Below, one piece after another: positions 4,815-9,433 of a stretch of 64,000 nucleotides of DNA (the first letter of the stretch is position 1; each line of letters opens with the position of its first letter). Under the pieces are notes generated by a model, which was not told the DNA's origin, did not search any database, and worked only from the letters and a program-made list of their open reading frames with translations. The DNA lies in the NCBI GenBank assembly GCA_965200925.1, contig OZ241738.1:2507965-2571964 (forward strand), given 5' to 3'. Both the position numbers and the translations under genes were made by a program. The DNA comes from Alphaproteobacteria bacterium. Lineage in GTDB: Bacteria > Pseudomonadota > Alphaproteobacteria > UBA828.

Positions 4815-5576
4815 ATGCCCGCGATGCACCAGGACGTCGTCGATCTCAACGCCTTCTACCTAAGCCGCTTGGGCTGGGTCGTGCGGCGCACGGTCGGCCA
4901 GCAAGTCCGCCGCGTCTGGCCGGACGTGCGCGGAGAGGCGGTGCTGGGGCTCGGCTACGCGACGCCCTTCCTCGGCCTCTTCCGCGGCGAAGCGGAGCGG
5001 GTCCTCGCGGTGATGCCGGCGGGCCAGGGGGTCATGGCCTGGCCCGAGAGCGGGGGCCGGCTGGCGGCGCTCGCCGACGACGCGGCACTGCCCCTCCCGG
5101 ACGGCGCGATCGACCGCATCCTGGTGGTGCACGGCCTGGAGTTCAGCGAACGGCGCGGCCCGATGCTCCGGGAAATCTGGCGGGTGATGCGGCCCGGCGG
5201 CCGCCTGCTGGCGCTCGCGCCGAACCGCCGCGGGCTCTGGGCCCGCGCCGAGGCGACGCCGTTCGGGCACGGCTCGCCGTTCAGCGCGTCGCAGCTCGCG
5301 CGCCTCCTGCGGGAGCACCGCTTCGCGCCCGTGGGCGGGGGCGCGATGCTCTTCCTGCCGCCGGTCGGCTGGCGTCCGGTGCTCCGCGCCGCTGCCCTCT
5401 GGCAGCGGGTCGGCCGGCATCTCGGGCGCCCTTTCGGCGGCGTCGTCTATGTGGAGGCCGACAAGACCGTGTTCGAGGCCCGTCCGGTCGCGGCGTCGGC
5501 GCGCCGTCGGATCTTCGTGCCGTTGCCGGAGCCCCTCCCCGCCGGCGCCCGCACGGCGGCGGATTCCGGCGGATAG
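4815..5576 (+). CDS. Class I SAM-dependent methyltransferase (type 11, YafS-like)
   Basis: DVVDLNAFY, LGLGYATPFL, LPLPDGAIDRILVVHGLE, PNRRGLWAR. Confidence 0.88.
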   Translation: MPAMHQDVVDLNAFYLSRLGWVVRRTVGQQVRRVWPDVRGEAVLGLGYATPFLGLFRGEAERVLAVMPAGQGVMAWPESGGRLAALADDAALPLPDGAIDRILVVHGLEFSERRGPMLREIWRVMRPGGRLLALAPNRRGLWARAEATPFGHGSPFSASQLARLLREHRFAPVGGGAMLFLPPVGWRPVLRAAALWQRVGRHLGRPFGGVVYVEADKTVFEARPVAASARRRIFVPLPEPLPAGARTAADSGG

Positions 5577-5642
5577 GCGCCGCGTTTGCCGAGGATGACA
5601 AAGCTCTTGACGAAGCTCCGTCGAGTGATGCAGACTACCTTC

Positions 5643-6357
5643 ATGCATACTTTCGTACCCCCCCCCCCCCCCCCCGCGACATGCGCGGACGTCCGAACGA
5701 CGGCTAAGTAGCCTCGGCGGCGCGGTCTCGCCGCGCTTCCTCTTCCCACCCCTTATCGCGGCTTCGCTTCTCGCCGCCGCCTGTGCGCCGACGGGCGTGA
5801 AGAACGCGCCGGGCACGCCCACCGCCTACCAGGACGTCGCCACCTCGGGCTTGGTCCGGGGCACCGGCATCGAGTCCCAGGACATCGCGAGCATGACGGA
5901 CAAGATGGTCCGCCACATGCTCGCCAACCCGGTGCTCGGCAACGCCGCCACACCGCCTCGGGTGATCGTCGACGCCGCCTATTTCGAGAACCAGAGCTCG
6001 CAGCGGCTGAACAAGAACCTCCTCATCGACCGGCTGGCGACCCTGCTCCAGATCGCTGCCAACGGGCGGATCCTGTTCGTCGACCGGGAACACGCCGACA
6101 TGGTGGAGAAGGAACGCAAGCTCAAGCGGGAGGGCGTGACCGACGTCGGCACCACCGGGCTGACGGAGGCGGTGGCGGGCGCCGACTACCGCCTCAACGG
6201 ACGCATCACCTCGCTTGACGCCCGCACCGCGGACGGGATCGTCGAACGGTACATGCAGATCGTCTTCCGCATGACGGACCTGGAGAATGGCATCGTCGTC
6301 TGGACCAACCAGTACGAGTTCAAGAAAGCCGGGCAGGATGATGTCGTCTACCGGTAG
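5643..6357 (+). CDS. LpoB/YcfM-family lipoprotein, frameshifted at the C18 tract as assembled (ORF track start 5797 lacks the signal peptide)
   Basis: Frame of 5797 extends upstream to the lipobox LIAASLLAAAC with no in-frame start; mature part DIASMTDKMVRHML...ADYRLNGRITSL...FRMTDLENGIVVW resembles LpoB/CsgG-fold proteins. Confidence 0.7.
5658..5675 (+). repeat. Homopolymer C18 tract
   Basis: GTA followed by 18 C then GCG, counted directly. Confidence 0.95.
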
Positions 6358-6397
6358 GGCACCGGCCGCGAAAAAACCCCACTCAAAGGAGAAGACA

Positions 6398-7624
6398 GTG
6401 AAACGCGCGATGGGAATTGCTCTTTTGTCCGGCTTGGCAATAGCCGGATGTTCGACATCCCCTGAATACGATGAAGCGGCGCTCACCGCCTATCTCGAAG
6501 ACAAGCCGGCGGAAATGCATGGCGTGTTCGAAAAGGTCGTCACCGAGGGTGAGCGCAACCACGTACTGAACCGGCTGCGCGCGGGTGTGGCGGCGATGGA
6601 CGCGGGCGACAACGCGCTTGCCGCGCAGACGTTCGACGAGGCGTTGTTGACCATCGAGACGATGTACGGCGGTAGCGACGAGGCCGCGGAGGCCCGCGGC
6701 ATGTTCACCGCGGAGGATCGCAAAATATTCCGCGGCGAGCCTTACGAGCGGGCCATGGCCTACTATTACCGGGGCGTTCTCTATCTGATGGAGGGCGATT
6801 ACGAGAACGCTCGCGCCAGTTTCAAATCGGGTTCCCTCCAGGACGCCTTGGCGGAAAAGGAAGAATTCCGGCAGGACTTTGCGCTGCTGGAGTACCTGGA
6901 TGGATGGGCGTCGCAGTGCAACGGTGACGTGTCCCTCGCGAGGGACACCTATGCGAATCTCGCGAGGGACGACTATGCGGCAGCGAGGTCGCATAACGGC
7001 GCGCCGGACGTCCCGGACGCGGGAGACAACCTGCTCGTCCTGGCAGAGCTCGGCCACGCACCGGTCAAGTATGCGGAGGGCGAGCACGACGAACTCCTGA
7101 AAATAAAGAGGAATCTCGCGCGCGGTCCGGGATCGGCCAGGGTTCGCCTGAACGACCGCTCGGTGCTTCTCTCCAACGGCGAGAGCGTCCTTTGGCAGGC
7201 GATGACCCGCGGAGGACGGGAGTTCGACTCTATCCTGACCGGCAAGGTGAATTTCAAGGAGGGCATGGAGGACGCGGCCGAGGTGGGAATGGCGGTGTCG
7301 ACCGCGGCCACCACCATGAGCACCATGCAGATGGCGACTGGCGATTACGATGCTGCTCAGATGTCCGGCGCCGTAGGTGCTGTTGCCGGCCTGTTTTCAC
7401 TGTTCGCGAGCGCCGCCGCGAGCGAGACCGAGCCGGCCGCCGATACGCGGCAGTGGGACAACCTGCCGGAGACGGTGGCCTACGGCACGTACCGGAGCGA
7501 TTCCGCTTCCCGCCCGGACGTGGAGTTTGAGGGTATCCCGGCGAACACCCGACCGACGCATTACGGCGGCGACGAGTCCTGCGCCATCGCCTGGGCCAAG
7601 TCGCAGCCCGGCAACCCGGGATAG
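6398..7624 (+). CDS. COG3014-like TPR-containing lipoprotein
   Basis: AAGGAG RBS then GTG; lipobox LAIAGC; FRGEPYERAMAYYY and ADTRQWDNLP motifs. Confidence 0.75.
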   Translation: MKRAMGIALLSGLAIAGCSTSPEYDEAALTAYLEDKPAEMHGVFEKVVTEGERNHVLNRLRAGVAAMDAGDNALAAQTFDEALLTIETMYGGSDEAAEARGMFTAEDRKIFRGEPYERAMAYYYRGVLYLMEGDYENARASFKSGSLQDALAEKEEFRQDFALLEYLDGWASQCNGDVSLARDTYANLARDDYAAARSHNGAPDVPDAGDNLLVLAELGHAPVKYAEGEHDELLKIKRNLARGPGSARVRLNDRSVLLSNGESVLWQAMTRGGREFDSILTGKVNFKEGMEDAAEVGMAVSTAATTMSTMQMATGDYDAAQMSGAVGAVAGLFSLFASAAASETEPAADTRQWDNLPETVAYGTYRSDSASRPDVEFEGIPANTRPTHYGGDESCAIAWAKSQPGNPG

Positions 7625-7630
7625 AGGACG

Positions 7631-8140
7631 ATGTTCCAAGTCGTCGTGCGCGCGATCGGTTCTCCCCGGTCGTATATCCTCGCGGCGGCTGTCGCCATGC
7701 TGGCAGTCGCGGCGTGCCAGCACCCCGCACATGTGGAGCCGAAGCCGCAATGCGACTTCCGCGCCATCAAACGGGCCGCGCCGCCCGAGGGCCCGGTCCT
7801 GGTGTCGCAGGTTCCGGGGTCGGTCACGCACGTGCCGTTGAACGCCGTGAACATCACGGACGTGGCCATCACCAACAAGATCATGGTGCAGACGAACGAC
7901 GCGCACCGCGCCGACAATGGCGACATTGATGTCTTCGCCCGGCTCGTGAACTGCACCGATTATCCGTTGCAGGTCGAGGGGCGCACCCACTTCCTCGATG
8001 CCGGGCAGGTGGACGCCGAACCGGTCACAGCCTGGAGCCGGGTCCATCTTCCGGCGCGGGCACTGGGAAGCTATTCGGCGCGCTCGACCGCCGGCGCAGC
8101 CGTCGAAAGCTACCTGATCGAGCTCCGGGAAGGCCGGTGA
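7631..8140 (+). CDS. YcfL/DUF1425-like lipoprotein
   Basis: Lipobox LAVAAC; LVNCTDYPLQVEGRTHFLD...WSRVHL...YLIELR; context with LpoB-like gene. Confidence 0.65.
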   Translation: MFQVVVRAIGSPRSYILAAAVAMLAVAACQHPAHVEPKPQCDFRAIKRAAPPEGPVLVSQVPGSVTHVPLNAVNITDVAITNKIMVQTNDAHRADNGDIDVFARLVNCTDYPLQVEGRTHFLDAGQVDAEPVTAWSRVHLPARALGSYSARSTAGAAVESYLIELREGR

Positions 8141-9042
8141 CACCGCGCCCATTTTCACGCAGACTCGCCGCGCTCGCGGGCATCGCCGTCTTTTGCGCCG
8201 CGGCCGCCGTCGTGAACGCAGCGGCAGAAGACGGCGGGAAGAGTCTCTACCGGTCGGGAACGCCGGCGGTCCTGAAACCCGCCGGGGGCGAGGCCGGGGA
8301 GACTCGCCGGGCGGCGGTCCCGTCGGCCGCGCGCGCGACGGCTTTCCGCCAAGCATATCGGCAGGCCGGCTTGCCGCGTCTGGCCGTATTCTGGAACCGC
8401 CTCTTCGATGATCGCCTGCGCGAGATGGAGGCGGAAAGCCGGCTCGTCGTCGAAGGCAACCGCGATGTGCGGACCGAGGAGGCCGGCAAGACCTCCCTGT
8501 GGCGCGACAGGGGCGGATGGACGGCGAGCATCGAGACCCGGCGGGAGGGAGCGCGCCCGGAGCCTTTGTCGGAAATCGCCGGGTTCAAGTTCCAGACCGG
8601 TTTCCTCACGCCCTTGATCGAAGCGGGCGCGGCCGTGGTCGATCGGGCGGCGGTCATGCGGCTGACGGAAGCCCGGCGCGCGCTCGCCGACGGTCCGGCC
8701 GGAAACGTCGCGGACCGCCAATTGGTCGAGACGACCGCGTTGATGGAGCACGCCGACCTCCTGATTCAGATCGCGCTCTCACCCTCGGGCGAATCGCCGA
8801 CCGGGACCTTCTTCCATATCTCAATCGTCGATGTGAAGACAGGGAGGCTCCAGGCGAGCTTCTTCAACGACGCGACGTTCGAGAGCGAACGCGGGAAGAA
8901 ATGGACCGCCGTCCGGGGCGGTTATGCCCGGGTCGGGAAGGAACGGAAGGTCGATCTCGAACGGGTGGGGCGTATCCTCGCCGCCCAGGCCATGGAGGCG
9001 CTGGTGCGGGTGTTTGCAACCGGCAACGAGGCGGCCTCCTGA
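8137..9042 (+). CDS. Exported hypothetical protein, possibly CsgG/TolB-N-like fold
   Basis: Signal peptide; PRLAVFWNR, VVDRAAVMRL, IVDVKTGRL; GTGA overlap with upstream gene. Confidence 0.65.
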   Translation: MTPRPFSRRLAALAGIAVFCAAAAVVNAAAEDGGKSLYRSGTPAVLKPAGGEAGETRRAAVPSAARATAFRQAYRQAGLPRLAVFWNRLFDDRLREMEAESRLVVEGNRDVRTEEAGKTSLWRDRGGWTASIETRREGARPEPLSEIAGFKFQTGFLTPLIEAGAAVVDRAAVMRLTEARRALADGPAGNVADRQLVETTALMEHADLLIQIALSPSGESPTGTFFHISIVDVKTGRLQASFFNDATFESERGKKWTAVRGGYARVGKERKVDLERVGRILAAQAMEALVRVFATGNEAAS

Positions 9043-9046
9043 CGCC

Positions 9047-9349
9047 ATGAGGCGGCGGGCGCTCTGCATCGCCGCAGCGGCCTTGCCGGTGGTCCCGCTA
9101 AGAGGCGCCGTCGGCGGCGCTTTCGTCAGCAAGGATATCGGTGGGGGTGAGGGCCGCGTTCTCGCCACCGCCGCAGGGACTCTCGTGGGAACCGCCGTCG
9201 GTGCCGGCATCGGGCGAAGCCTCGACCACGCCAACCGGGGTTACGAGAGCCGACCTACTGGGTTTCGTTCCGGTTTTCGGTGCGCGGGCTGGAGGCCCGC
9301 GCACACGGGGCTTGCTCCGGCTCAAGGTGCACGCCGCGGGTCTGTATGA
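9047..9349 (+). pseudogene. Glycine-zipper (17-kDa surface antigen-like) gene remnant
   Basis: GAVGGAFVSKDIGGGEGRVLATAAGTLVGTAVGAGIGRSLD; no lipobox and a degenerate C-terminus. Confidence 0.55.
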
Positions 9350-9433
9350 CCGAAGGAGAGGAGGAAGACCGCCTGTTCGCCGACCAGCTTGTGGCCCGGA
9401 GAGACAATCTCCGGTCCGAAGCCCGACGGGCCC

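Follow-up and report, generated by a model that had tools for sequence, protein, structure and literature searches.

A poly-C tract at the 5' end of an LpoB-domain lipoprotein gene as a probable translational on/off switch in an alphaproteobacterium

A run of 18 cytosines (C18) occupies positions 5658-5675 of the 64,000-nucleotide (nt) stretch of alphaproteobacterial contig OZ241738.1 analyzed here (the window; positions below are window positions on the forward strand), at the 5' end of a gene for a lipoprotein with an LpoB-type domain (Pfam PF13036). An earlier note on this DNA had proposed the run as a phase-variation switch for that gene; the run, which encodes proline in any frame, is read directly. 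The open reading frame (ORF) as called begins at an internal GTG (5797-6357) and encodes 186 amino acids (aa). Its frame (position mod 3 = 1) is open from 5629, directly 3' of the TGA at 5626-5628, and passes through a signal-peptide core and lipobox at 5734-5784 (RFLFPPLIAASLLAAAC, Cys codon 5782-5784) into the mature part (5785-6357), ending at the stop codon 6355-6357. The translation upstream of the mature part, ...YPPPPPPRHARTSERRLSSLGGAVSPRFLFPPLIAASLLAAAC directly followed by APTGVKNAPG..., contains a lipoprotein signal peptide with the lipobox LAAAC, the cysteine of which is nearly invariant in an alignment of relatives.

This frame has no start codon of its own: upstream of 5797 it contains no ATG, GTG or TTG. 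A non-canonical start downstream of the tract, which the earlier note had raised as a way around a switch, was looked for as well, and the lipoprotein frame is devoid of ATG, GTG, TTG, CTG and ATT from the tract up to the hydrophobic core; the sole ATH codon is ATC 5755, inside the core. The codons TTG 5586 and ATG 5595, 5628 and 5643 all lie in one other frame (mod 3 = 0), which translates as MHTFV-PPPPPP-ATCADVRTTAK and stops at TAG 5709-5711. A tract of 3n+2 cytosines joins the frame of the upstream ATGs to the lipoprotein frame, and the window needs one C fewer (a +1 shift) for the two to be joined. The proximal ATG (5643-5645) is the likeliest start codon; the gene calls of natural in-frame alleles begin at the equivalent of ATG 5628. 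Since all three ATGs share one frame, the logic of the switch is independent of which of them starts. The earlier note had described the run, the frame without an upstream start and the three ATGs of another frame accurately. Its statement that the gene is OFF as assembled stands insofar as the assembled C18 is out of frame, but the state is not reliable for an 18-nt consensus homopolymer.

Alleles of the fused form exist in near-identical strains. The 186-aa product of the window (P0123) belongs to a 90% protein cluster of seven sequences, two of which, P0125 and P0128 from other assemblies, are 240 aa long each and carry the fusion. P0125 reads MQTTFMHTFV-PPPP-RHARTSERRLSSLGGA...LLAAAC... 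and P0128 reads MQTTLMHTFV-PPPP-RHSRTSERR...; after the four prolines both continue RHARTSERRLSS... up to the lipobox. Their first ten residues correspond to the window's frame from ATG 5628, and their residues after the tract are identical to the window's lipoprotein frame at 229 of 230 (P0125) and 226 of 230 (P0128) positions. The proline run, read as GTA CCC CCC CCC CCG CGA, implies a tract of C11 in both, a 3n+2 length. The strains are 98-99% identical to the window, yet the tract length differs (C11, as deduced from the protein, versus C18). The fusion of MHTFV-Pn to the lipoprotein, which the earlier note had expected of a 3n+2 tract, is found in these natural sequences.

In-frame and truncated forms also occur side by side in larger samples of the family. 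Of the 41 sequences in the four 90% clusters that we examined (those of P0004, P0014, P0003 and P0007), 10 have the proline run in frame with the lipoprotein, 19 were called as the truncated 186-aa product and the remaining 12 are fragments of other kinds. The proline runs of the in-frame members are 4, 4, 4, 5, 4, 11, 4, 6, 4 and 7 residues long; one of these members, P0158, is in frame from a distal ATG only, and one cluster of 13 has no in-frame member. The 19 truncated products, called from the internal GTG and devoid of a signal peptide, mean that the family is systematically mis-annotated.

Scanning species-representative genomes with the mature protein gave 17 related loci. In 8 of them a C run occupies the position that it has in the window, with a short ORF on its 5' side and the signal peptide on its 3' side. 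The runs range from 12 to 36 C: C20 in L001, C23 in L002, C28 in L003, C16 in L004, C12 in L005, C14 in L007, C21 in L008 and C36 in L009. The last two (record OZ241350.1) are copies of the whole lpoB cluster within one genome, 97.6% identical over 3854 bp, with tracts that differ by 15 C. In all nine tract-bearing loci, the window included, a short ORF begins 2-8 codons 5' of the tract and reads into it. Joining the frames takes one more C in six loci and one fewer in two, among them the window; L003 needs no change. Six of the nine lack a downstream start in the lipoprotein frame. A tract of variable length at one site, with in-frame and out-of-frame forms in relatives, and the in-frame alleles P0125 and P0128 support the phase-variation reading of the earlier note.

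Loci L006, L010, L012-L015, L017 and, from metagenomes, L038-L040 are free of the tract; their start is an ordinary one, and their lipoprotein signal peptide is short. L038-L040 are the three loci found in a scan of metagenome contigs, all with an ordinary Shine-Dalgarno sequence and a TTG start. L011 (2869-2995) carries an interrupted poly-C remnant (ccctcccccctcccc) with an ATG in frame (MHELLNSTLPPPRRLAERPRQRRSGAGIAPLALAAALLAAGC) and looks like a locked-ON descendant of the switch. It shares the start context ATGCAT with the window and L005, and its genome retains many other tracts (76 C14 windows). In a tree of three concatenated cluster proteins (755 columns, midpoint root), all nine tract-bearing loci fall into one clade (support 100/99) together with L011, L006, L012 and L010, and the outgroups are tract-free. 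The sister group of L011 consists of L006 and L012 (100/100), neither of which has a tract. At least three tract changes are needed on this tree, possibly a single gain plus two losses; because the root is a midpoint, their direction is one that we infer. The records of L003 and L004 are titled 'Candidatus Binatia' and 'Gammaproteobacteria', and their lpoB clusters nest in the alphaproteobacterial clade at 83-87% identity, which reflects either wrong labels of metagenome-assembled genomes or transfer of the cluster.

Just downstream of the tract, the window contains TAAGTAG (5705-5711), which places a stop in both wrong frames (TAA 5705-5707 and TAG 5709-5711), 9 and 11 codons after the tract, and is sense (CTA AGT AGC) in the lipoprotein frame. 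All nine loci have stops in both wrong frames within 2-15 codons of the tract, and in all nine the lipoprotein frame is open for 221-245 codons with the mature ORF intact. Among 6240 random in-frame positions in the genome's own ORFs, taken as a control, such double stops occur within 15 codons in 1.8% of cases and within 11 codons in 1.1%. The nine loci are kin and hence not independent observations; despite this kinship, their double stops argue for selection, as the sequences that form them are of at least four kinds (CTAAGTAG, CTAGATAG, CTAGCTAAG, TAA..TGA and others). Conserved stops in both off frames are sensible only if the wrong frames actually get read. The mature region is under purifying selection, with a ratio of nonsynonymous to synonymous substitution rates (dN/dS) of 0.085-0.204 between the window and the eight other tract-bearing loci (dS 0.30-0.95) and of 0.114-0.124 between the window and three relatives without an uninterrupted tract (L006, L010 and L011).

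The most promoter-like sequence at the locus precedes both the proximal ATG and the tract. It consists of a -35-like hexamer TTGACG at 5607-5612 and a -10-like hexamer CAGACT at 5631-5636, spaced by 18 nt and matching at 8 of 12 positions, the latter ending 6 nt before ATG 5643. This putative promoter is argued by homology and relaxed matching: a pair TTGAC[GA]-N17/18-xAxAxT that ends 6-9 nt before the proximal ATG is present in six of the nine tract-bearing loci, with 9 of 12 matches each and a gap of 7 nt in L001 and L002, 9 of 12 and 9 nt in L005, and 10 of 12 each and 7 nt in L008 and L009. No purine-rich Shine-Dalgarno sequence lies 5' of ATG 5643; gene 2 of the cluster, by contrast, has AAAGGAG. 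Because the -10-like hexamer ends so close to the ATG and a Shine-Dalgarno sequence is missing there, the arrangement suggests that the mRNA begins at A 5643 or close to it and has little or no leader.

Two further elements of the leader were tried and rejected. A G+C-rich hairpin (GCGGCG-CGGTCT-CGCCGC) at 5717-5734 lies directly 3' of the off-frame stops, in the most conserved DNA of the leader. As an attenuator it is unsupported, with five consensus pairs, -4.3 kcal/mol and covariation that is too weak (a compensatory change in one of the five pairs); terminator-like sites are no commoner than in shuffled sequences (2 versus 2.4). A twin-arginine translocation (Tat) signal, suggested by ERRLSS, was discarded since the twin arginine is not kept in L005 (WR) and L007 (QR).

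We consider it highly likely that C18 is a hypermutable translational on/off switch at the 5' end of the LpoB-domain lipoprotein gene. Translation would start at the ATG just 5' of the tract, most likely 5643 and possibly on a leaderless message, and the ribosome would read a few codons and then translate the C run into prolines, before passing through a long n-region of the signal peptide and the lipobox into the mature protein. Replication slippage, presumably by slipped-strand mispairing, would change the number of cytosines. Only lengths of 3n+2 would put the start in frame (ON); in the other two frames translation would meet a stop 9-11 codons after the tract and no lipoprotein would be made (OFF). 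Such changes are presumably reversible within a lineage.

Several observations weigh against this switch or parts of it. As assembled, only one of the nine tract-bearing loci (L003) is in frame from its proximal start, versus three expected at random. All tract lengths were taken from assembly consensus, in many cases probably built from long reads, and each length and each ON/OFF state may be one base off, and the C11 of P0125 and P0128 was obtained from protein and not read from DNA; short-read assemblers may moreover favor short alleles that can be bridged. The Logan contigs of four sequencing runs (X14, X1, X4 and X16) never bridge the tract and therefore speak neither for nor against switching within a population: they end at 5660, 5674 or 5675 and begin at 5660, 5665, 5666 or 5674. 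A strict sigma-70 scan of 5400-9400 gave no promoter, and L003, L004 (gap 32) and L007 do not have the leaderless geometry. Finally, loss of mismatch repair was considered as a source of instability and rejected for MutS: domain V of MutS lies in an open frame of 907 aa in this genome and is present in 20 of 21 genomes of the genus, so no mismatch-repair defect of this kind explains the instability.

The most direct alternative is an assembly artefact, in which the real tract is fixed in frame (e.g. C17), the gene is always ON and the frame break is a homopolymer consensus error. A homopolymer of 18 nt is indeed difficult in long-read consensus, six of the nine loci come into frame after adding one C, as a systematic under-call of one base would give, and the contigs break at the tract in all four runs. 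However, lengths at the same site range from 11 (the value deduced from protein) to 36, far beyond a one-base error, in-frame forms with 4 to 11 prolines coexist with truncated forms within 90% clusters, and the stops kept in each off frame would have no purpose unless ribosomes did enter the wrong frames. We thus regard an artefact as a very improbable account of the locus, although it may be correct for the ON/OFF state of the window itself.

Nor is it at all probable that non-heritable slippage, by RNA polymerase or by a tRNA-Pro frameshift, partly restores the frame and gives constitutive low expression whatever the length of the DNA. The run is longer than the RNA:DNA hybrid, which permits realignment; CCC-C is a known +1-prone frameshift site, and +1 is the shift that the window needs; six or more prolines stall ribosomes unless elongation factor P (EF-P) acts, and EF-P is encoded in the genome. 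Against this, the required shift varies among loci (-1 in six, +1 in two, none in one), the tract length is not conserved (12-36), so there is no fixed programmed site, and in-frame DNA alleles exist. Slippage may add leakiness to the OFF state without replacing the DNA switch.

A tract that lies in a promoter or 5' untranslated region and tunes transcription, with the lipoprotein starting 3' of it, seems to us extremely improbable. Other tracts of the genome do look like promoter spacers (TTGAC-G15-TATAGA at C1:633983; TTGTCA-C12/14-GTGGTAGGGA before lipoprotein paralogues). Here, in contrast, the best -35/-10 pair lies wholly 5' of the ATG and the tract, so the tract is not the spacer; no in-frame start is available between tract and hydrophobic core, likewise in six of the nine loci; and in L011 as in the natural alleles, the reading frame of the upstream ATG runs on across the tract. 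Decay of the gene, with the tract as a mutational scar in a pseudogene that is being lost, has next to no probability: eight of the nine loci are out of frame as assembled and the tract was lost at least twice in the clade, but the mature ORF is intact throughout, dN/dS (0.09-0.20) is the same as in tract-free relatives (0.11-0.12), the uninterrupted tract persists over dS 0.3-1.0, and the genome has no other PF13036 gene.

The product of the switched gene matches PF13036 with 78.7 bits (cut-off 22.3, E 5.3e-22). Its score against the NCBIfam LpoB equivalog TIGR02722 is 53.5 bits, below the cut-off of 110.55, so the designation LpoB-type in the earlier note holds at the level of the Pfam domain and, less specifically, of the fold, and fails at that of the equivalog. 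No LpoB chain was found in the PDB by a single-protein search or, at E <= 1, by a profile of 30 family sequences. An AlphaFold2 model (predicted local distance difference test score, pLDDT, 77) matched the C-domain of E. coli LpoB (4q6z_A) in Foldseek with E 2.1e-6 and template modelling (TM) scores of 0.45 and 0.60 (0.60 on the target); CsgG (1.4e-6), GNA1162 and PelC match equally well. The protein resembles E. coli LpoB, the PBP1B activator, in its PF13036 domain, outer-membrane-type lipobox and fold match, and differs from it in the sub-threshold equivalog score, the lack of a PDB sequence match and a CsgG fold match that is as good. We class it as a predicted LpoB-fold outer-membrane-type lipoprotein. 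An LpoB-domain protein that is off in many strains is unlikely to be an essential activator of a peptidoglycan synthase.

It is followed on the same strand by four more genes. Gene 2 (6398-7624, GTG start after AAAGGAG) encodes a 408-aa lipoprotein with weak matches to tetratricopeptide repeats (TPR; 22.3 versus a cut-off of 27). Gene 3 (7631-8140) encodes a small lipoprotein of 169 aa, possibly YcfL/DUF1425-like: the Pfam match to DUF1425 (E 0.081) is below the cut-off and only a lead, the Atlas score is 0.97 to a cluster in which 16% of the members carry DUF1425, and a PDB sequence search gave no match. Gene 4 (8137-9042), which overlaps gene 3 by 4 nt, encodes a 301-aa exported protein of no known family. 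Gene 5 (9059-9349), 16 nt after gene 4, encodes a small protein with weak glycine-zipper matches and was seen in seven of the loci where the flank extends that far. The gaps between the five co-directional genes are 40, 6, -4 and 16 nt. Loci L001-L012 and L014 have the first four in the same order, and L013 lacks gene 2; the methyltransferase upstream is not syntenic.

In such a cluster the OFF state would be expected to lower expression of the four downstream genes. Early termination of translation would leave about 650 nt of lpoB RNA untranslated. C-rich RNA is a preferred substrate of Rho, which is encoded in the genome, and the C-rich transcript would be a good loading site for it. A polar effect of the OFF state is plausible.

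The tract is one of many in a genome that consists of a single contig of 3,548,566 bp with 69.6% G+C. The number of C/G runs declines geometrically with length (each extra base multiplies it by 0.18) until only two are left at 10 nt; beyond that comes a second population of 37 runs of 11-30 nt. A geometric fit to the runs of 3-8 nt predicts 0.15 runs of at least 11 nt and 9e-7 of at least 18 nt, versus 37 and 13 observed; the longest A/T runs reach 9 nt at most. Of these 37 tracts, 21 directly precede an open frame of at least 212 aa. A Pfam scan of 20 such ORFs (all but lpoB) identified seven with an autotransporter beta-domain, five giant Calx-beta/LapA proteins, one subtilase with a lipobox and two cytoplasmic-type enzymes; the five without a match include three lipoprotein paralogues with C12, C14 and C17. 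Most of the 37 tracts thus mark the 5' ends of genes for autotransporters, Calx-beta/LapA adhesins and lipoproteins. In the 20 clearest cases the sense strand is the one with poly-C about 15 times. Tract positions include C1:192905, 319211, 348595, 393488, 438506, 633983, 770128, 820052, 1185157, 1240135, 1251705, 1394842, 1541050, 2400643, 2403711, 2591196 and 2610304.

Some tracts sit in or beside other kinds of genes. A G15/C15 tract (L042:2343-2357; G000:C1:3105842-3105856) splits a family-2 (GT2) glycosyltransferase gene. Another GT2 gene of the genome has a tract too, and a C22/C23 pair precedes autotransporter copies. A C14 run (L041:3645-3658; G000:C1:1632144-1632157) lies just 5' of a piece encoding an MmeI C-terminal domain and 3' of an MmeI-type methylase/target-recognition gene, which may belong to a phase-variable restriction-modification enzyme. 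Two element copies, with C14 at G000:C1:1717501-1717514 and C16 at C1:3029894-3029909, share the same downstream ORF beginning GRGTRKTPVIGAVERGG. By eye it looks like part of an IS1595 transposase; Pfam confirmation applies to an intact IS1595 copy in L043 only.

A search of 41 genomes showed C12 runs in 17 of the 20 other genomes of the genus and in none of four from other genera of the family. The load is uneven within the genus, from 0-2 windows up to 216. All seven genomes with an lpoB tract have 30-220 C14 windows, and the two genomes with an ordinary lpoB start and neither tract nor remnant (L006 and L010) have none. A genome of the same class and another family (G038) contains 228 C12 windows. 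Here several tracts can crowd into some 150 nt, on either strand (for example at C2:462925-463066 and C7:282287-282340), possibly as an assembly artefact.

Related devices are known from other bacteria. In Neisseria, homopolymers in the 5' or signal-peptide coding region of surface-protein genes drive phase variation (poly-G in pilC; poly-C in nalP and mspA). The locus described here likewise has a G/C run a few codons after the start whose length modulo 3 decides on an exported protein, and belongs to a multi-locus set. It differs in that an LpoB-domain lipoprotein heads a five-gene envelope cluster, in the leaderless-looking start, in tracts of up to 36 nt, and in the host, an uncultured alphaproteobacterium of 70% GC that is not a pathogen. 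Bordetella pertussis has poly-C tracts in the fim2 and fim3 promoters and a coding tract in bvgS. It is, likewise, a high-GC proteobacterium with long variable C runs that control surface proteins; its fim tracts are promoter spacers, whereas the tract here is inside an ORF. Campylobacter jejuni is not known to have MutS or MutL and has tracts of 8-13 nt in a low-GC genome, unlike the present genome of 70% GC, which keeps MutS and has tracts of 11-30 nt. Both have dozens of G/C tracts biased to surface structures, glycosyltransferases and restriction-modification genes. Poly-G contingency genes of C. jejuni have been described (PMC3068675), and so has the wider use of homopolymeric tracts as a device (Orsi et al., PMC2831843).

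Among gene clusters that have been studied, the nearest is the cj0089-cj0090-cj0091 operon of C. jejuni, which encodes a TPR lipoprotein, a small lipoprotein and an LpoB homologue (PMC3100323). Cj0091 is reported to lie in the outer membrane, to be immunogenic and to aid adherence and chick colonization (PMC3100323; PMC11394524); H. pylori HP0018 and HP1457 belong to the same comparison (PMC11394524). The C. jejuni operon is under the control of CmeR, and phase variation is not reported for it. The two clusters are alike in combining LpoB-domain, TPR-like and small lipoproteins, a likeness by description, as the TPR and DUF1425 matches here are sub-threshold; unlike in C. jejuni, the LpoB-like gene comes first. 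The surface traits of Cj0091 make such a protein a plausible target of on/off switching.

Literature searches found no link between the LpoB family and phase variation, nothing relevant on homopolymeric phase variation in sponge symbionts or on homopolymeric contingency loci in Alphaproteobacteria, and, for a poly-C tract combined with a signal peptide and frameshift phase variation, Neisseria only. We take the tract for a genuine example of the classical translational poly-C switch and for part of a genome-wide set; neither the gene family nor organisms of this kind had provided an example so far. Homopolymer on/off switches are textbook knowledge from a few pathogens of animals, and in the present genome such a device stands at the head of a conserved operon for envelope lipoproteins. 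As the roughly 37 tracts mostly precede autotransporters and giant adhesins, the set suggests stochastic variation of the cell surface in these bacteria, presumably as a defence against phages or recognition by a host. DNA nearly identical to the window occurs in runs labelled sponge metagenome, and no RNA run was found to contain it. More tentatively, and in our view less likely than not, an uncultured and apparently sponge-associated lineage at the level of the genus might keep 30 or more poly-C/G switches by selection, the lpoB-like one uninterrupted since the ancestor of the clade (dS up to about 1) and placed on a leaderless mRNA whose poly-C would serve both as a frame switch and as a Rho loading site that silences all five genes. 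If this is true, contingency-locus biology, so far a hallmark of animal pathogens, would be at work in a marine invertebrate symbiosis.

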